A stretch of DNA of 24,428 bases from a virus (Duplodnaviria; Heunggongvirae; Uroviricota; Caudoviricetes), in IMG/VR virus record IMGVR_UViG_2734482543_000012, one strand, 5' to 3'. Positions 11,450 to 20,844 of this stretch are shown here, piece by piece. Under the pieces are notes generated by a model. The model saw only the letters and a list, made by a program, of their open reading frames with translations, was not told where the DNA came from and did not search any database. Numbering within the stretch: position 1 is the first letter of the stretch; the number at the start of each line of letters is the position of its first letter. The translations under genes were made by a program, and so were the position numbers.

Positions 11450-14040
11450 ACCGGTAGGCGATCTGGTCGTTGATTTGAGTCTGGATGCGGCCAGATTTGA
11501 CGAGCAGATGGCCAGAGTCAGGCGTCATTTTTCCGGTACGGAAAGTGATGCGAAAAAAACAGCGGCAGTCGTTGAACAGTCGCTGAGCCGACAGGCGCTG
11601 GCTGCACAGAAAGCGGGGATTTCCGTCGGGCAGTATAAAGCCGCCATGCGTATGCTGCCTGCACAGTTCACCGACGTGGCCACGCAGCTTGCAGGGGGGC
11701 AGAATCCCTGGCTGATCCTGCTGCAACAGGGTGGTCAGGTTAAGGACTCCTTCGGCGGGATGATCCCCATGTTCAGGGGGCTTGCCGGCGCGATCACCCT
11801 GCCGATGGTGGGGGCCACCTCGCTGGCGGTGGCGACCGGTGCGCTGGCGTATGCCTGGTATCAGGGCAACTCAACCCTGTCCGATTTCAACAAAACGCTG
11901 GTCCTTTCCGGTAATCAGGCGGGACTGACGGCAGATCGTATGCTGGTCCTGTCCAGAGCCGGGCAGGCGGCAGGGCTGACGTTTAACCAGACCAGCGAGT
12001 CACTCAGCGCACTGGTTAAGGCGGGGGTAAGCGGTGAGGCTCAGATTGCGTCCATCAGCCAGAGTGTGGCGCGTTTCTCCTATGCATCCGGCGTGGAGGT
12101 GGACAAGGTCGCTGAAGCCTTCGGGAAGCTGACCACAGACCCGACGTCGGGGCTGACGGCGATGGCACGCCAGTTCCATAACGTGACGGCGGAGCAGATT
12201 GCGTATGTTGCTCAGTTGCAGCGTTCCGGCGATGAAGCCGGGGCATTGCAGGCGGCGAACGAGGCCGCAACGAAAGGGTTTGATGACCAGACCCGCCGCC
12301 TGAAAGAGAACATGGGCACGCTGGAGACCTGGGCAGACAGGACTGCACGTGCATTCAAATCCATGTGGGATGCGGTGCTGGATATTGGTCGTCCTGATAC
12401 CGCGCAGGAGATGCTGATTAAGGCAGAGGCTGCGTTTAAGAAAGCAGACGACATCTGGAATCTGCGCAAGGATGATTATTTCGTTAACGATGAAGCACGG
12501 GCGCGTTACTGGGATGATCGTGAAAAAAAACGCCTGGAGCGGGATGCAGCCCAAAAGAGGGTAGATCAACAGCGTCAACAGGACAAAAATGCGCAGCAGC
12601 AGAGCGATACCGAAGCGTCACGGCTGAAATATACCGAAGAGGCGCAGAAGGCTTACGAACGGCTGCAGACGCCGCTGGAGAAATATACCGCCCGTCAGGA
12701 AGAACTGAACAAGGCACTGAAAGACGGAAAAATCCTGCAGGCAGATTACAACACGCTGATGGCGGCGGCGAAAAAGGATTATGAAGCGACGCTGAAAAAG
12801 CCGAAACAGTCCGGCGTGAAGGTGTATGCGGGCGATCGTCAGGAAGACAGTGCTCATGCGGCCCTGCTGACGCTTCAGGCAGAACTCCGGACGCTGGAGA
12901 AGCATGCCGGAGCGAATGAGAAAATCAGCCAGCAGCGCCGGGATTTGTGGAAGGCAGAAAGTCAGTTCGCGGTACTGGAGGAGGCGGCACAACGTCGCCA
13001 GCTGTCCGCACAGGAGAAATCCCTGCTGGCGCATAAAGACGAGACGCTGGAGTACAAACGCCAGCTGGCTGCACTTGGTGACAAGGTTACGTATCAGGAG
13101 CACCTGAATGCGCTGGCGCAGCAGGCGGATAAATTCGCACAGCAGCAACGGGCAAAACGGGCAGCCATTGATGCGAAAAACCGGGGGCTGACTGACCGGC
13201 AGGCAGCGCGGGAAGCCACGGAACAGCGCCTGAAGGAACAGTATGGCGATAATCCTCTGGCGCTGAATAACGTCATGTCAGAGCAGAAAAAGACCTGGGC
13301 GGCTGAAGACCAGCTTCGCGGGAGCTGGATGGCAGGCCTGAAGTCCGGCTGGAGTGAGTGGGAAGAGAGCGCCACGGACAGTATGTCACAGGTTAAAAGT
13401 GCAGCCACGCAGACCTNNNNNNNNNNNNNNNNNNNNNNNNNNNNNNNNNNNNNNNNNNNNNNNNNNNNNNNNNNNNNNNNNNNNNNNNNNNNNNNNNNNN
13501 NNNNNNNNNNNNNNNNNNNNNNNNNNNNNNNNNNNNNNNNNNNNNNNNNNNNNNNNNNNNNNNNNNNNNNNNNNNNNNNNNNNNNNNNNNNNNNNNNNNN
13601 NNNNNNNNNNNNNNNNNNNNNNNNNNNNNNNNNNNNNNNNNNNNNNNNNNNNNNNNNNNNNNNNNNNNNNNNNNNNNNNNNNNNNNNNNNNNNNNNNNAC
13701 CGGCGGCAAATATGAGCCAGCGGGGATTGTTCACCGTGGTGAATTTGTCTTCACGAAGGAGGCAACCAGCCGGATTGGCGTGGGGAATCTCTACCGGCTG
13801 ATGCGCGGCTATGCGGAAGGTGGTTATGTGGGCGGTGCCGGAAGTCCGGCGCAGATGCGGCGGGCTGAAGGCATTAATTTTAATCAGAACAATCACGTGG
13901 TGATTCAGAACGACGGTACGAATGGTCTGCCAGGTCCACAGATGATGAAGGCCGTGTATGACATGGCCCGCAAGGGTGCCCGTGATGAAATTCAGACACA
14001 GATGCGTGATGGTGGCCTGTTCTCCGGAGGTGGACGATGA
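11442..14040 (+). CDS. H: Tail tape-measure protein gpH, interrupted by an N-run (13417-13698). The two halves are in different frames because the gap length is arbitrary.
   Basis: N-terminal part MAEPVGDLVVDLSLDAARFDEQMARVRRHFSGTESDAKK... and C-terminal part ...GGKYEPAGIVHRGEFVFTKEATSRIGVGNLYRLMRGYA...QTQMRDGGLFSGGGR both match lambda gpH. The stop overlaps the M start as in lambda. Confidence 0.9.
13417..13698. other. Assembly gap / masked sequence (282 N) inside the tape-measure gene
   Basis: Continuous run of n characters. By comparison with lambda H length, roughly 245 nt of real sequence would be expected here, so the gap size is not exact. Confidence 0.95.
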
Positions 14041-14366
14041 AAACCTTCCGCTGGAAAGTGAAACCCGGTATGGATGTGGCTTCGGCCCCTTCTGTAAGAA
14101 AGGTGCGCTTTGGTGATGGCTATTCCCAGCGAGCGCCTGCCGGGCTGAATGCCAACCTGAAAACGTACAGCGTGACGCTTTCTGTCCCCCGTGAGGAGGC
14201 CATGGTACTGGAGTCGTTTCTGGAAGAGCACGGGGGCTGGAAAGCCTTTCTGTGGACGCCGCCTTATGAGTGGCGGCAGATAAAGGTGACCTGCGCAAAA
14301 TGGTCGTCGCGGGTCAGTATGCTGCGTGTTGAGTTCAGCGCAGAGTTTGAACAGGTGGTGAACTGA
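14037..14366 (+). CDS. M: Tail tip assembly protein gpM (109 aa)
   Basis: MKTFRWKVKPGMDVASAPSVRKVRFGDGYSQRAPAGLNANLKTYSVTLSVPREE... matches lambda gpM. Confidence 0.95.
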   Translation: MKTFRWKVKPGMDVASAPSVRKVRFGDGYSQRAPAGLNANLKTYSVTLSVPREEAMVLESFLEEHGGWKAFLWTPPYEWRQIKVTCAKWSSRVSMLRVEFSAEFEQVVN

Positions 14367-15064
14367 TGCAGGATATCCGGCAGGAAACACTGAATGAATG
14401 CACCCGTGCGGAGCAGTCGGCCAGCGTGGTGCTCTGGGAAATCGATCTGACAGAGGTCGGTGGAGAACGTTATTTTTTCTGTAATGAGCAGAACGAAAAA
14501 GGTGAGCCGGTCACCTGGCAGGGGCGACAGTATCAGCCGTATCCCATTCAGGGGAGTGGTTTTGAACTGAATGGCAAAGGCACCAGTACGCGCCCCACGC
14601 TGATGGTTTCTAACCTGTACGGTATGGTCACCGGGATGGCGGAAGATCTACAGAGTCTGGTCGGCGGAACGGTGGTCCGGCGTAAGGTTTACGCCCGTTT
14701 TCTGGATGCGGTGAACTTCGTCAACGGAAACAGTGACGCCGATCCGGAGCAGGAGGTGATCAGCCGCTGGCGCATTGAGCAGTGCAGCGAACTGAGCGCG
14801 GTGAGTGCCTCTTTTGTACTGTCCACGCCGACGGAAACAGATGGCGCTGTTTTTCCGGGACGTATCATGCTGGCCAACACCTGCACCTGGACCTATCGCG
14901 GCGATGAGTGCGGTTATCACGGTCCGGCGGTCGCGGATGAATATGACCAGCCAACGTCCGACATCACGAAGGATAAATGCAGCAAATGCCTGAGTGGCTG
15001 TAAGTTTCGCAATAACGTCGGCAACTTTGGCGGCTTCCTTTCCATTAACAAACTTTCGCAGTAA
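14366..15064 (+). CDS. L: Tail tip protein gpL (232 aa)
   Basis: MQDIRQETLNECTRAEQSASVVLWEIDLTEVGGERYFFCNEQNEKGEPVTWQGRQYQPYPIQG... matches lambda gpL, including C-terminal cysteines consistent with its Fe-S cluster. Start overlaps the M stop (TGATG). Confidence 0.95.
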   Translation: MQDIRQETLNECTRAEQSASVVLWEIDLTEVGGERYFFCNEQNEKGEPVTWQGRQYQPYPIQGSGFELNGKGTSTRPTLMVSNLYGMVTGMAEDLQSLVGGTVVRRKVYARFLDAVNFVNGNSDADPEQEVISRWRIEQCSELSAVSASFVLSTPTETDGAVFPGRIMLANTCTWTYRGDECGYHGPAVADEYDQPTSDITKDKCSKCLSGCKFRNNVGNFGGFLSINKLSQ

Positions 15065-15069
15065 ATCCC

Positions 15070-15813
15070 ATGACAGAGACAGAATCAGCGATTCTGGCGC
15101 ACGCCCGGCGATGTGCTCCAGCGGAGTCGTGCGGCTTCGTGGTAAGAACGCCGGAGGGGGAAAGATATTTCCCCTGCGTGAATATCTCCGGTGAGCCGGA
15201 GGCGTATTTCCGTATGTCGCCGGAAGACTGGCTGCAGGCAGAGATGCAGGGTGAGATTGTGGCACTGGTCCACAGCCACCCCGGTGGTCTGCCCTGGCTG
15301 AGTGAGGCCGACCGGCGGCTGCAGGTGCAGAGTGATTTGCCGTGGTGGCTGGTCTGCCGGGGGGCGATTCACAAGTTCCGCTGTGTGCCACATCTTACCG
15401 GGCGGCGCTTTGAGCACGGGGTGACGGACTGTTACACGCTGTTCCGGGATGCTTACCATCTGGCGGGGATTGAGATGCCGGATTTTCATCGTGAGGATGA
15501 CTGGTGGCGTCACGGTCAGAATCTCTATCTGGATAATCTGGAGGCCACAGGGCTGTATCAGGTGCCGTTGTCAGCGGCGCAGCCGGGCGATGTGCTGCTG
15601 TGCTGTTTTGGTTCATCGGTGCCGAATCATGCCGCCATTTACTGTGGTGACGGCGAGCTGCTGCACCATATTCCTGAACAACTGAGCAAACGAGAGAGGT
15701 ATACCGACAAATGGCAGCGACGCACACACTCCCTCTGGCGTCACCGGGCATGGCACGCATCTGCCTTTACGGGGATTTGCAACGATTTGGCCGCCGCATC
15801 GACCTTCGTGTGA
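15070..15813 (+). CDS. K: Tail tip assembly protein gpK, full-length 247-aa form with an N-terminal JAB/MPN (JAMM) domain and a C-terminal NlpC/P60-like Cys-His domain. The classical 199-aa lambda annotation corresponds to the internal ATG near 15214.
   Basis: ORF starts 5 nt after the L stop. Contains the JAMM-type motif HSHPGGLPWLSEAD with an upstream Glu, plus Cys (DCYTLFRDAYHLAG) and His (NHAAIYCGDGELLHH) typical of NlpC/P60. The C-terminal 199 aa match lambda gpK. 103-nt overlap with I as in lambda. Confidence 0.85.
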   Translation: MTETESAILAHARRCAPAESCGFVVRTPEGERYFPCVNISGEPEAYFRMSPEDWLQAEMQGEIVALVHSHPGGLPWLSEADRRLQVQSDLPWWLVCRGAIHKFRCVPHLTGRRFEHGVTDCYTLFRDAYHLAGIEMPDFHREDDWWRHGQNLYLDNLEATGLYQVPLSAAQPGDVLLCCFGSSVPNHAAIYCGDGELLHHIPEQLSKRERYTDKWQRRTHSLWRHRAWHASAFTGICNDLAAASTFV

Positions 15814-16382
15814 AAACGGGTGCCGAAGCCATCCGGGCGATGGCCACACAGCTCCCTGCGTTTCGTCAGAAGCTGAGCGACGGCTGGTATCAGGTGCGTA
15901 TTGCCGGGCAGGATGTTAGCACGTCCGGATTAACGGCACAGTTACATGAGGCTCTGCCTGACGGCGCTGTGATTCATATTGTTCCCAGAGTCGCCGGGGC
16001 CAAGTCAGGTGGTGTATTCCAGATTGTCCTGGGAGCAGCCGCCATTGCCGGATCATTCTTTACCGCCGGAGCCACCCTTGCAGCATGGGGGGCTGCCATT
16101 GGTGCCGGTGGTATGACCGGCATTCTGTTTTCTCTCGGTGCCAGTATGGTGCTCGGCGGTGTGGCTCAGATGCTGGCACCGAAAGCCAGAACTCCCCGCA
16201 CACAGACAACGGATAACGGTAAGCAGAACACCTATTTCTCCTCACTGGATAACATGGTTGCCCAGGGCAATGTTATGCCTGTTCTGTATGGTGAAATGCG
16301 CGTGGGGTCACGTGTGGTATCTCAGGAGATCAGCACGGCAGACGAAGGGGACGGTGGTCAGGTTGTGGTGATTGGTCGCTGA
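15711..16382 (+). CDS. I: Tail tip assembly protein gpI (223 aa)
   Basis: MAATHTLPLASPGMARICLYGDLQRFGRRIDLRVKTGAEAIRAMATQLPAFRQK... matches lambda gpI. Confidence 0.95.
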   Translation: MAATHTLPLASPGMARICLYGDLQRFGRRIDLRVKTGAEAIRAMATQLPAFRQKLSDGWYQVRIAGQDVSTSGLTAQLHEALPDGAVIHIVPRVAGAKSGGVFQIVLGAAAIAGSFFTAGATLAAWGAAIGAGGMTGILFSLGASMVLGGVAQMLAPKARTPRTQTTDNGKQNTYFSSLDNMVAQGNVMPVLYGEMRVGSRVVSQEISTADEGDGGQVVVIGR

Positions 16383-16442: not shown

Positions 16443-19400
16443 ATGGGTAAAGGCAGCAGTAAGGGGCATACCCCGCGCGAAGCGAAGGACAACCTGAAGT
16501 CCACGCAGCTGCTGAGTGTGATCGATGCCATCAGCGAAGGGCCGGTTGAAGGTCCGGTGGATGGATTAAAAAGCGTGCTGCTGAACAGTACGCCGGTGCT
16601 GGACAGTGAGGGGAATACCAACATCTCCGGCGTCACGGTGGTGTTCCGGGCAGGTGAGCAGGAGCAGTCACCGCCGGAGGGATTTGAATCCTCCGGCTCC
16701 GAGACGGTGCTGGGTACGGAAGTGAAATATGACACGCCGATCACCCGGACCATCACGTCGGCAAACATTGACCGACTGCGTTTTACCTTCGGTGTACAGG
16801 CACTGGTGGAAACCACCTCAAAGGGAGACAGGAATCCGTCTGAAGTTCGCCTGCTGGTTCAGATACAGCGTAACGGTGGCTGGGTGACGGAAAAAGACAT
16901 CACCATTAAGGGCAAAACCACCTCGCAGTATCTGGCCTCGGTGGTGGTGGATAACCTGCCGCCGCGCCCGTTTAATATCCGGATGCGCAGAATGACGCCG
17001 GACAGCACCACAGACCAGCTGCAGAACAAAACGCTCTGGTCGTCATACACCGAAATCATCGATGTGAAACAGTGCTACCCGAACACGGCACTGGTCGGCG
17101 TACAGGTGGATTCGGAGCAGTTCGGCAGCCAGCAGGTGAGCCGTAATTATCATCTTCGCGGGCGCATTCTGCAGGTGCCGTCGAACTATAATCCGCAGAC
17201 GCGGCAATACAGCGGTATCTGGGACGGAACGTTAAAACCGGCATACAGCAACAACATGGCCTGGTGTCTGTGGGATATGCTGACCCATCCGCGCTATGGC
17301 ATGGGGAAACGTCTTGGTGCGGCAGATGTGGATAAATGGGCGCTGTATGTCATCGGCCAGTACTGTGACCAGTCGGTGCCGGACGGCTTTGGCAGCACGG
17401 AGCCGCGCATCACCTGTAATGCCTGGCTGACCACACAGCGCAAGGCGTGGGATGTGCTCAGTGATTTCTGCTCGGCGATGCGCTGTATGCCGGTATGGAA
17501 CGGGCAGACGCTGACGTTCGTGCAGGACCGACAGTCGGATAAGGTGTGGGCCTATAACCGCAGTAATGTGGTGATGCCGGATGATGGCGCGCCGTTCCGC
17601 TACAGTTTCAGCGCCCTGAAAGACCGCCATAATGCCGTTGAGGTGAACTGGATTGACCCGGATAACGGCTGGGAGACGGCGACAGAGCTTGTGGAGGATA
17701 CGCAGGCCATTGTCCGTTACGGTCGTAACGTCACGAAGATGGATGCCTTTGGCTGTACCAGCCGGGGGCAGGCACACCGCGCCGGGCTGTGGCTGATTAA
17801 AACGGAACTGCTGGAGACGCAGACCGTGGATTTCAGCGTGGGTGCTGAAGGGCTTCGTCATGTACCGGGCGATGTCATTGAAATCTGCGATGATGACTAT
17901 GCCGGTATCCGCACCGGCGGGCGCGTGCTGGCGGTGAACAGCCAGACCCGGACGCTGACGCTCGACCGTGAAATCACGCTGCCATCCTCCGGCACCACGC
18001 TGATAAGCCTGGTTGACGGGCAGGGGAATCCGGTCAGCGTGGAGGTCCAGTCCGTCACCGACGGCGTGAAGGTAAAAGTGAGCCGTGTTCCTGACGGTGT
18101 TGCTGAATACAGCGTGTGGGGGCTGAAGCTGCCGACGCTGCACCAGCGATTGTTCCGCTGCGTGAGTATCCGTGAGAACGACGACGGCACGTATGCCATC
18201 ACCGCCGTGCAGCATGTGCCGGAAAAAGAAGCCATCGTGGATAACGGGGCGCACTTTGACGGCGACCAGAGCGGCACGGTGAATGGTGTCACGCCGCCAG
18301 CGGTGCAGCACCTGACTGCCGAAGTCACCGCAGACAGCGGGGAATATCAGGTGCTGGCGCGCTGGGACACGCCGAAGGTGGTGAAGGGCGTGAGCTTCCT
18401 GCTCCGTCTGACCGTAACAGCGGATGACGGCAGTGAGCGGCTGGTCAGCACGGCCCGGACGACGGAAACCACTTACCGCTTCACACAACTGGCGCTGGGG
18501 AACTACAGGCTGACAGTCCGGGCAGTAAATGCGTGGGGGCAGCAGGGCGATCCGGCGTCGGTATCGTTCCGGATTGCCGCACCGGCAGCGCTGTCGCGGA
18601 TTGAGCTGACGCCGGGCTATTTTCAGATAACCGCCACGCCGCATCTTGCGGTTTATGATCCGACGGTACAGTTTGAGTTCTGGTTCTCGGAAAAGCGGAT
18701 TGCGGATATCAGGCAGGTTGAAACCACAGCACGCTATCTTGGCACGGCGCTGTACTGGATAGCCGCCAGTATCAATATCAAACCGGGCCATGATTATTAC
18801 TTTTATATCCGCAGTGTGAACACCGTTGGCAAATCGGCATTCGTGGAGGCTGTTGGTCAGCCGAGTGATGATGCATCCGGTTATCTGGATTTTTTCAAAG
18901 GCGAGATAGGGAAAACCCATCTGGCTCAGGAGCTGTGGACGCAGATTGATAACGGTCAGCTTGCGCCTGACCTGGCTGAAATCAGGACGTCCATTACGGA
19001 TGTCAGCAATGAAATCACGCAGACCGTCAATAAGAAACTGGAAGACCAGAGTGCGGCAATTCAGCAGATACAGAAGGTTCAGGTTGATACAAATAATAAC
19101 CTGAACAGCATGTGGGCTGTGAAGCTGCAGCAGATGCAGGACGGACGCCTTTATATCGCGGGTATTGGTGCCGGTATTGAGAACACCCCTGACGGCATGC
19201 AGAGTCAGGTGCTGCTGGCGGCGGACAGGATTGCGATGGTTAATCCTGCGAATGGCAACACAAAACCGATGTTTGTTGGTCAGGGCGATCAGATATTCAT
19301 GAACGACGTGTTCCTGAAACGCCTGACGGCCCCCACCATTACCAGCGGTGGAAATCCATCGGCATTTTCCCTGACTCCGGACGGAAAGCTGACCGCTAAA

Positions 19401-19940
19401 AATGCGGATATCAGTGGCAGTGTGAATGCGAACGCCGGGACGCTCAACAATGTCACGGTAAATGAAAACTGTACGATTAAGGGCATGCTGGAGGCGACTC
19501 AGGTCAGAGGTGACTTCGTTAAAGCTGTATCCAAATCATTTCCGAAACAGGCTGGTACGTGGGGTAACACGGAAACACCAAACGGGACGGTTACAGTCAC
19601 CATAAGCGATGATCATAACTTTGACCGCCAGATTATTATTCCGCCCATTATTTTTAACGGTATAGCGTATGACGATCCGGGGAGCGGAAATAACCCAGGA
19701 GGCACGCGATACACGGGTTATGGTTTTGAAGTTCGCAAAAACGGCGTATTAATCGCATCCAGAGAAACTAAAGGTGCCATTCCCGGTAGTTACAGTGCAG
19801 TTATTGATATGCCTAGTGGTGGTGGTAGCGTCACTCTGGAGTTTAAGATTTTCCAGAAAGGCAATCAGGGGGCAGGCAATATCACCGACTGTACGGTGAT
19901 TGTGACCAAAAAAGCGGCTTCCGGCATCAGTATTCGTTGA
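16443..19940 (+). CDS. J: Central tail fibre / tip attachment (host-specificity) protein gpJ, 1165 aa. The N-terminal roughly 800 aa are lambda-like; the distal C-terminal receptor-binding region diverges from lambda J.
   Basis: [54 protein letters not shown]... and most of the body are near-identical to lambda gpJ (1132 aa in lambda). The C-terminal about 150 aa (..[32 protein letters not shown]...[10 protein letters not shown]) do not match my recollection of the lambda LamB-binding C-terminus. Confidence 0.95.
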
Positions 19941-20010: not shown

Positions 20011-20819
20011 ATGCGTAAAGTTTGTGCAGCCATTTTGTCCGCAGCCATTTGCCTGGCCGTATCCGGTGCGCCTGCATGGGCGTCTGAACATCAGTCCACG
20101 CTGAGCGCGGGGTATCTTCATGCCCGGACCAACGTTCCCGGCAGTGATGATCTGAACGGGATTAACGTGAAATACCGTTATGAGTTTACGGATACGCTGG
20201 GGCTGGTGACGTCATTCAGCTATGCAGGAGACAAGAATCGCCAGCTGACCCGTTACAGCGATACCCGCTGGCATGAAGATTCCGTGCGTAACCGCTGGTT
20301 CAGCGTGATGGCGGGGCCGTCTGTGCGCGTGAATGAATGGTTCAGCGCGTATGCGATGGCGGGTGTGGCTTACAGCCGTGTGTCGACTTTTTCCGGGGAT
20401 TATATCCGCGTAACTGACAATAAGGGGAAAACGCACGATGTGCTGACCGGAAGTGATGACGGTCGCCACAGCAACACGTCTCTGNNNNNNNNNNNNNNNN
20501 NNNNNNNNNNNNNNNNNNNNNNNNNNNNNNNNNNNNNNNNNNNNNNNNNNNNNNNNNNNNNNNNNNNNNNNNNNNNNNNNNNNNNNNNNNNNNNNNNNNN
20601 NNNNNNNNNNNNNNNNNNNNNNNNNNNNNNNNNNNNNNNNNNNNNNNNNNNNNNNNNNNNNNNNNNNNNNNNNNNNNNNNNNNNNNNNNNNNNNNNNNNN
20701 NNNNNNNNNNNNNNNNNNNCCCGACCGAATCCGTGGCCATTGATATTGCTTATGAAGGCTCCGGCAGTGGCGACTGGCGCACTGACGGTTTCATCGTGGG
20801 TGTCGGTTATAAGTTCTGA
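20011..20819 (+). CDS. lom: Outer-membrane beta-barrel protein of the Lom/Ail/PagC/OmpX family (lysogen-expressed moron), interrupted by an N-run. The N-terminal part diverges from lambda Lom; the C-terminal 32 aa are lambda-like.
   Basis: N-terminal signal peptide (MRKVCAAILSAAICLAVSGAPAWA), alternating-hydrophobic beta-strand segments (GINVKYRYEFTDTLGLVTSFSYAG, WFSAYAMAGVAYSRV), and C-terminal ...VAIDIAYEGSGSGDWRTDGFIVGVGYKF ending in aromatic F, as in lambda Lom. Position between J and stf as in lambda. The frame differs across the gap (gap artefact). Confidence 0.85.
20485..20719. other. Assembly gap / masked sequence (235 N) inside lom
   Basis: Continuous run of n characters. Alignment of the flanking Lom segments to lambda Lom suggests only about 10 codons are missing, so the run length is not informative, or extra sequence is hidden. 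Confidence 0.95.
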
Positions 20820-20844
20820 TTAGCCAGGTAACACAGTGTTATGA

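Follow-up and report, generated by a model that had tools for sequence, protein, structure and literature searches.

Gene organization at the K locus

The window, that is, the whole stretch of 24,428 nucleotides analysed in this study, contains a lambda-like late operon (Nu1-A-W-B-C-D-E-...-H-M-L-K-I-J-stf). The position of gene K between L and I-J (M-L-K-I-J) is shared by lambda, an E. coli prophage and other contigs. The following features were located in K and at its borders:

14366-15064, + strand: gene L, minor tail / tail tip protein of 232 aa, directly 5' of K (ORF list)
15065-15069, + strand: L-K spacer ATCCC, 5 nt (sequence reading)
15070-15813, + strand: full-length gene K, 247 aa, predicted JAB/MPN+ domain followed by NlpC/P60 domain (ORF list, Pfam, homologues, model, Foldseek)
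15070-15213, + strand: N-terminal extension of 48 codons, missing from the 199-aa lambda annotation; predicted to supply the JAMM fold with its helix 1 and strands 1-2 (Pfam, PHROG, codon bias, model)
15124-15126, + strand: Glu19 codon GAG, predicted JAMM catalytic glutamate, Glu in 80/81 homologues of the 81-sequence alignment (motif, PMC300881)
15198-15202, + strand: GGAGG within the coding sequence (Pro-Glu-Ala codons), 11 nt 5' of the internal ATG; possible Shine-Dalgarno site of the legacy start
15204, + strand: G without counterpart in J02459/NC_001416, falling between reference positions 14266 and 14267 (alignment)
15214-15216, + strand: internal ATG (Met49), legacy 199-aa start, equal to lambda 14276
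15271-15312, + strand: HSHPGGLPWLSEAD, residues 68-81, predicted JAMM zinc-ligand motif H-S-H-x7-S-x2-D (homologue alignment)
15400-15741, + strand: predicted NlpC/P60 (C40) papain-like peptidase domain, residues 111-224 (Pfam, conservation, Foldseek)
15711-16382, + strand: gene I, encoding a plug protein of tail tip assembly whose N-terminal domain is predicted to be ubiquitin-like, overlapping the 3' end of K (ORF list, Pfam)

According to both the ORF list and direct reading of the sequence, the K frame runs uninterrupted over 247 codons from the ATG at 15070 to a TGA ending at 15813. The stop codon of L (TAA) occupies 15062-15064, and the claim of the earlier note that a 247-aa K frame is open from 5 nt after this stop was verified for the ORF, the ATCCC spacer and the ATG alike. 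An in-frame TAA is present upstream at 15046-15048, and ATG, GTG and TTG codons were sought in the K frame between this stop and position 15070 and none was found; thus, ATG 15070 is the sole possible start of the long form. Residues 1-48, which are encoded only in this form, include the peptides AESCGFVVR and YFPCVNISGEPEAYFR. At the 3' end of K, the product of the overlapping gene I matches the Pfam family Lambda_tail_I over its residues 14-97.

A Shine-Dalgarno-like sequence was sought upstream of ATG 15070 and none was found, suggesting that K is probably translated by coupling to the termination of L. The L-K junction was compared with that of distant relatives from Phytobacter, Rahnella, Hafnia, Erwinia, Enterobacter, Pantoea, Atlantibacter and Citrobacter, where the stop codon of the upstream gene overlaps the K ATG (TGATG or ATGA) or abuts it, with gaps ranging from -4 to +11 nt, the non-overlapping case being a gap of 11 nt. 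A K start abutting L is therefore a conserved arrangement. Whereas no Shine-Dalgarno sequence precedes ATG 15070, GGAGG is found 11 nt before the internal ATG 15214 and is annotated in OM418626 as the ribosome binding site for K, so that initiation may also take place internally.

Domain architecture of the K product

The earlier note had described gpK as a protein with two domains, JAB/MPN and NlpC/P60, and this description is supported by Pfam, structure prediction and Foldseek. Taking the Pfam gathering scores as cutoffs (25 bits for PF14464, Prok-JAB, and 23 bits for PF00877, NLPC_P60), the 247-aa K matches Prok-JAB with 52.6 bits over residues 4-98 (profile positions 4-103 of 114) and NLPC_P60 with 49.2 bits over residues 111-224 (profile positions 1-105 of 105). 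Both domains exceed their cutoffs in the long form only. The 199-aa form reaches 22.9 bits with Prok-JAB, below the 25-bit cutoff, and covers profile positions 63-103 only, in agreement with the proposal that the short version would be devoid of the beginning of the JAMM domain. The 48-aa piece alone aligns to positions 3-41 of the same profile, PHROG tail families match the N-terminal 48 residues, and PDB entry 2kks aligns from K residue 7 in a sequence search.

The JAMM motif has been defined as E-x(n)-H-S/T-H-x7-S-x2-D (PMC300881). It is complete in the long form only, with E19, H68-S69-H70, S78 and D81 at the respective positions, and its second part, HSHPGGLPWLSEAD at residues 68-81, lies downstream of the extension, as had been pointed out earlier. 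In the second domain, the predicted catalytic residues of the NlpC/P60 type are Cys121 (15430-15432), His187 and His199.

An AlphaFold2 model of K, computed from an alignment of 81 sequences, reached a pLDDT of 96.6 and a pTM of 0.91. Residues 1-50 are modelled with a pLDDT of 97-98 and are predicted to form a helix (3-15) and two strands (21-27 and 30-36). Together with Glu19 and five conserved positions, these elements correspond to the start of the JAMM fold that the earlier note had assigned to the extra 48 aa. When the model was compared with the PDB by Foldseek, the JAMM side matched PfJAMM1 (5ld9/5lda; target TM 0.66-0.69, rmsd 2.5-2.7 A), Rpn11, CSN5, AMSH and 2kks, and the NlpC/P60 side matched MepS (8xup), Spr (2k1g), Acd33800 (9ubf) and 7v6s (target TM 0.55-0.69). 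Profile matches and predicted structure thus indicate that K comprises a complete JAB/MPN+ (JAMM) domain (about residues 3-105) and, C-terminal to it, an NlpC/P60 domain (about residues 111-224). In terms of activity, these are predicted to be a JAMM zinc metallo-isopeptidase and a papain-like cysteine peptidase, respectively.

Conservation of the N-terminal extension

The comparison with K homologues suggested in the earlier note was carried out at two depths. A total of 836 close homologues were found; most of the complete proteins among those listed (Escherichia, Shigella, Salmonella, Citrobacter and Edwardsiella) have a length of 242-249 aa and carry PF14464 and PF00877, and shorter, fused and partial entries are also present. 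A distant search of a representative library of 1.84 billion proteins (E <= 0.001) yielded 2776 proteins, and most of the distant members listed align from query residues 1-15. The 79 members chosen from this list for alignment have a length of 229-271 aa and identities of 34-59%, and the N-termini of 79/80 homologues are found between -8 and +7 residues relative to Met1. RefSeq PGAP likewise annotates 744-nt homologues, named 'C40 family peptidase', in E. coli prophages.

Besides Glu19, five positions of the extension are conserved in 94-100% of the 81 aligned homologues: G22 and N38 are found in 81/81 sequences, and P17, C21 and F47 in 76/81. Among the downstream JAMM residues, H68, H70 and D81 are invariant (81/81), and S69 and S78 are Ser in 77/81, the other 4 having Thr. 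The residues of the NlpC/P60 domain are similarly maintained, with C121, H187 and H199 each present in 80/81 sequences and H200 in 76/81. At the nucleotide level, 16 distinct close DNA sequences showed 10, 7 and 27 variable sites at codon positions 1, 2 and 3, respectively, within nt 1-144 of K, and 36, 21 and 95 in the rest of the gene. Synonymous changes dominate in the K frame only, being far fewer in the two alternative frames. Conservation of the K protein reaches Xanthomonas, with 44% identity.

These data bear directly on a reading in which the upstream 144 nt would be non-coding and open by chance, K truly starting at Met49. Such a reading would agree with the legacy annotation and with the lack of a Shine-Dalgarno sequence before ATG 15070, but it is at odds with the third-position bias and the far commoner synonymous changes in the K frame, with conservation as far as Xanthomonas, including six nearly invariant residues, and with the fact that Pfam, PHROG, PDB and structural matches all span the stretch. 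It is scarcely credible, and these comparisons effectively refute it. Every test run, whether on sequences or on the model, indicates that the N-terminal extension is coding and functional.

A different question is whether the internal start is used in addition to the upstream one. Two products would then be made, one of 247 aa from ATG 15070 and another of 199 aa, essentially the NlpC/P60 domain only, from ATG 15214 by means of GGAGG, in a nested-gene arrangement like that of lambda C/Nu3 or S107/S105. The position of GGAGG 11 nt before the internal ATG, as well as its annotation in OM418626, would favour this possibility, and Met49 is kept in those relatives that were examined from Escherichia, Shigella, Salmonella and Citrobacter. 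Across the 81-sequence alignment, however, position 49 is Met in 13 sequences and Ile in 51, and Ile, Leu or Val replaces Met in 64 of the 81, indicating that the internal start is not a feature of the family. Furthermore, GGAGG is equally accounted for by the Pro-Glu-Ala codons, and, judging from the model, the 199-aa product would contain about half a JAMM domain, from which the catalytic Glu would be missing along with helix 1 and strands 1-2, and its folding would probably be poor. Two products are thus considered unlikely. A narrower version, in which the K genes of lambdoid phages from Escherichia, Shigella and Salmonella would be nested and encode two isoforms (GGAGG-N11-ATG, 15198-15216) with differing roles in gpI processing, is regarded as quite improbable as well. 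A single 247-aa product starting at ATG 15070 is the preferred reading.

A single-base difference from the lambda reference

In the lambda reference (NC_001416 and J02459), L is annotated at 13429..14127, K at 14276..14875 (199 aa) and I at 14773..15444. The lambda coordinates used in the earlier note, as well as its offsets of 937 up to the L stop and 938 from the internal K start onward, proved correct against these records: window and reference differ by 937 at M and L, and by 938 at both the internal ATG and the stop of K. A difference of 1 nt within the stretch had been tentatively suggested from this shift, and it was located by aligning window positions 14990-15330 with NC_001416. The alignment contains seven substitutions and one indel, the latter being G15204 of the window, within GGAGGC[G]TATTTCC, which is absent from the reference. 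The alternative that lambda is identical in this interval and its upstream frame is also open was examined at the same time: one indel was found and the reference frame is broken. Vendor notes on commercial lambda sequence presumably list an insertion of G at 14266 relative to J02459; the coordinate derived here for the missing base agrees with such an entry.

In the reference, the ORF beginning 5 nt downstream of L encodes MTQTES...GEPEA (MTQTESAILAHARRCAPAESCGFVVSTPEGERYFPCVNISGEPEA), then leaves the K frame and comes to a stop after 76 codons. With the upstream frame closed by the absence of the G, only the internal Met could be annotated, and hence gpK was given 199 aa. The explanation offered earlier for the short reference annotation is therefore upheld. 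However, the resequenced lambdas OM418626 and EU078592 have the G, yet their K is annotated as 199 aa, so that part of the discrepancy is pure inheritance of the annotation. Gene callers or curators pick the 199-aa start on some sequences with the G, and another lambda record, PV340536, annotates a 744-nt K. The accessible literature was searched for papers reporting the missing G or a gpK of 247 aa, and none was found.

Distribution of the two versions among sequenced genomes

The occurrence of both versions was surveyed in several collections. A 63/64-nt probe matched 108 phage records, of which the version without the G was found exactly in 4 (J02459, NC_001416, OR474059 and OR974322) and the version with the G exactly in 38. 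OR474059 is an UNVERIFIED, unannotated engineered strain, and OR974322 is a 48,496-bp 'isolate' from chicken swabs whose annotation is identical to that of RefSeq; both are apparently derived from the reference. The G is present in the laboratory lambdas LC730321 (48,503 bp), PV340536 and KT232076, which were independently sequenced, as well as in lambda imm21, imm434, h434 imm21, the BL21 prophage DE3 and DN1. In mEp460, a BLAST span of 63 of the 64-nt query appeared as a candidate second deletion; it was rejected, the record annotating an intact 744-nt K.

A scan of 5,426 complete E. coli genomes gave 6,641 matching places in 3,913 genomes (3929 records). The version without the G was not found at >=99% identity among the best matches in these records; the best match to it was at most 98.4% in every E. 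coli record, the top matches differing from it by the single gap. In a further scan with one genome per species, 57 K loci were detected, of which 24 contained the 22-mer with the G and 0 the 22-mer without it. The 76-aa frameshift product was absent from a collection of 15 billion proteins by exact look-up, a weak indication given that gene callers may skip such an ORF. The exact long lambda K protein occurs on at least 1000 contigs (under the name 'MULTISPECIES: C40 family peptidase [Bacteria]'), and the exact K protein of the window also occurs on at least 1000, named as a C40 family peptidase of Shigella.

Ten contigs from unrelated organisms, including Neobacillus, Pseudomonas, Shewanella, Chromatium, Leeuwenhoekiella, Paenibacillus, Desulfosporosinus and Bradyrhizobium, also contain an exact copy of the long lambda K (744 nt); their length is about 48.4-48.5 kb in three cases. 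They are evidently lambda spike-in or contaminant DNA, though not necessarily of the cI857 Sam7 stock sequenced in 1982. Another 10 contigs, assembled de novo, had received a gene call identical to the 199-aa lambda K. Each of them keeps a base at the position of the G, nine reading GGCGTAT and one, a wild lambdoid, GGGTTAT. Natural deletions were considered for contigs with 199-aa calls whose gap from L to the ATG is 147, 148 or 150 nt, and were rejected, as the length changes lie elsewhere. Four such contigs have GGGGG shortened to GGGG, CCCC lengthened to CCCCC or the loss of a TG, and in one contig the L-K spacer is 4 nt long; the indels that break the long frame in these contigs look like typical long-read assembly errors.

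The reference is thus an outlier, and the G is present in all independent sequences of lambda or lambdoid phages that were examined. To judge from the counts of both versions across the collections, the base was most likely missed in 1982 when a GC-rich stretch was read; at most, its absence is a mutation peculiar to the clone that was sequenced. Programmed frameshifting that would rescue the reference frame was also considered, and was dropped as unnecessary since the deletion is seen in no independent sequence.

The missing G could alternatively be a genuine mutation of the lambda sequenced in 1982, a laboratory lesion, in which case a 199-aa K would suffice and the JAMM domain would be dispensable. 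K is an essential tail gene and the reference lambda is viable, and laboratory lambda (PaPa) has another known frameshift, in stf (PMC10721106), both of which would fit such a lesion, as would the deletion shared by OR474059 and OR974322. However, these two records look reference-derived, all other laboratory lambda derivatives examined and the 10 independent assemblies of lambda contaminants have the G, and the JAMM residues are strongly conserved, which makes a genuine lesion of this kind very unlikely. An error in reading, or at most a change private to one clone, is the explanation retained below.

Proposed origin and function of the 247-aa K

Taken as a whole, the account in which the K of the window is the normal, full-length form of 247 aa, and the 199-aa gpK stems from a reference lacking one G, is proposed with high confidence. 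It builds on the gene structure, as read directly, and on both folds and the conservation of both active sites, for which the model and the homologues argue here. Ribosomes terminating on L would most likely reinitiate 5 nt downstream, at ATG 15070. In the reference, the missing G would close this upstream frame and would have led the annotators of 1982 to the internal Met49. Since the missing G is most likely an error or a private mutation, real lambda would also make a 247-aa gpK.

As for function, processing by K of the adjacent ubiquitin-like protein I was proposed by Iyer, Burroughs and Aravind in 2006 (PMC1779556). Previous studies of lambda virions did not detect gpK by mass spectrometry or cryo-EM (PMC10721106, PMC12617516), and of gpI only residues 135-223 are seen in the lambda tail tip (PMC10721106). 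Both observations, the absence of gpK from virions and the visibility of gpI 135-223 alone in the tip, are consistent with the processing of I by K. K may act transiently during tail-tip assembly without being kept in the virion; the ubiquitin-like N-terminal domain of protein I would probably be processed by the JAMM domain of K, perhaps with the participation of the papain-like domain.

The K of the window is an ordinary, typical K homologue that is already known, its RefSeq form having 247 aa. The value of these results is therefore curatorial: NC_001416/J02459 and the UniProt entry TIPK_LAMBD (P03729) still list a gpK of 199 aa, and a recent review gives its length as '199 in total' (PMC7291167). 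This form has neither the predicted catalytic glutamate nor approximately the first 40% of the JAMM domain, so that a lambda K taken from the reference for cloning, for modelling or for testing JAMM cleavage of the ubiquitin-like domain of gpI would be a crippled construct.

Comparison with known systems

The predicted JAMM domain of K has its fold and full motif in common with the JAMM/MPN+ isopeptidases that remove ubiquitin-like modifiers, such as the desampylases PfJAMM1/HvJAMM1, Rpn11, CSN5 and AMSH. Unlike in those enzymes, however, the JAMM domain of K is fused to NlpC/P60, and its presumed substrate is protein I of the phage in place of SAMP or ubiquitin. Residues 3-114 of K match the NCBIfam desampylase model with 29 bits, far under the equivalog cutoff of 130 bits, indicating that K is not a desampylase orthologue. 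In the second domain, the predicted papain-like fold and the Cys-His-His triad are common to K and to E. coli MepS/Spr (C40). Whereas MepS/Spr is a periplasmic autolysin, the role assigned to K is in tail-tip assembly, and gpK is undetected in virions.

The closest counterpart is lambda gpK itself (P03729 TIPK_LAMBD, NP_040598, AAA96551), which shares the L-K-I-J position, the JAMM motif and the NlpC/P60 domain. In its reference form, lambda gpK starts at Met49 and is without helix 1, strands 1-2 and Glu19, all of which are present in the K of the window. When the long lambda K of resequenced genomes is taken instead, the identity is 97% over 247 residues. The JAB plus NlpC/P60 architecture of TAPK proteins was published in 2003-2006, and TAPK, the 'C40 family peptidase' of RefSeq, has the same architecture, the same ubiquitin-like neighbour TAPI and a similar length (about 229-271 aa), with no material difference from the K described here.

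Start site of gene I

The gene for the tail tip assembly protein, which overlaps the 3' end of K, offers a choice of three candidate starts:

15711-16382, + strand: gene I, with possible starts at ATG 15711, ATG 15750 (MARICLYGDL...) and GTG 15810

The annotation problem of this gene is the reverse of that of K. In the lambda annotation, I encodes 223 aa from the ATG corresponding to window position 15711, which gives an overlap of 103 nt with K. RefSeq PGAP, the resequenced lambda record PV340536 and Goulet 2020 have a shorter protein instead, of 190 aa, that begins at GTG 15810. In the long form, residues 14-97 align with positions 2-83 of the Pfam Lambda_tail_I profile, which describes the ubiquitin-like domain. 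Because the 190-aa form spans only profile positions 26-83, it probably cuts into this domain. A start at ATG 15711 or ATG 15750 is likelier than one at GTG 15810.

Antisense ORF and masked stretches

One open frame lies opposite the genes L and K:

14648-15391, - strand: 247-aa ORF overlapping L and K

That K also encodes 247 aa is a coincidence, and the antisense frame appears to be no more than a shadow ORF in GC-rich coding DNA. Two genes of the window, H and the ORF at 20011-20823, cannot be read through because of masked runs:

13417-13698: 282 masked bases (N) within the tape-measure gene H
20485-20719: 235 masked bases (N) within the ORF at 20011-20823, downstream of J

Lambda reference and lambda DNA in public assemblies

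Gene M is located at 13099..13428 in the resequenced lambdas OM418626 and LC730321, but at 13100..13429 in the reference J02459. Upstream of K, the coordinates of resequenced lambdas are thus shifted by -1 against those of J02459, and register is restored past the extra G that the reference lacks. J02459 therefore appears to contain a second 1-nt discrepancy, a surplus base that would lie upstream of M (reference position < 13100), within the first 13.1 kb.

The scan of genome contigs for K loci also recovered low-coverage contigs of roughly 1.5-48.5 kb (L023-L034) that correspond to whole or partial lambda genomes, three of them of ~48.4-48.5 kb. The assemblies that contain them belong to unrelated bacteria, among them Neobacillus, Pseudomonas, Shewanella, Chromatium, Leeuwenhoekiella and Bradyrhizobium; the contigs are evidently contaminating spike-in or control DNA that was deposited together with these genomes.

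Kind of phage

In public sources, the exact K protein of the window goes under the name of a Shigella sonnei/flexneri protein. Rather than being lambda itself, the window is thus probably a lambdoid prophage of Shigella or E. coli. Two further genes were compared with their lambda counterparts:

16443-19940: J, 1165 aa
20878-23844: side-tail-fibre ORF, intact, 988 aa

J is 1165 aa long in the window and 1132 aa in lambda, and whereas stf is frameshifted in laboratory lambda, the side-tail-fibre ORF of the window is intact.
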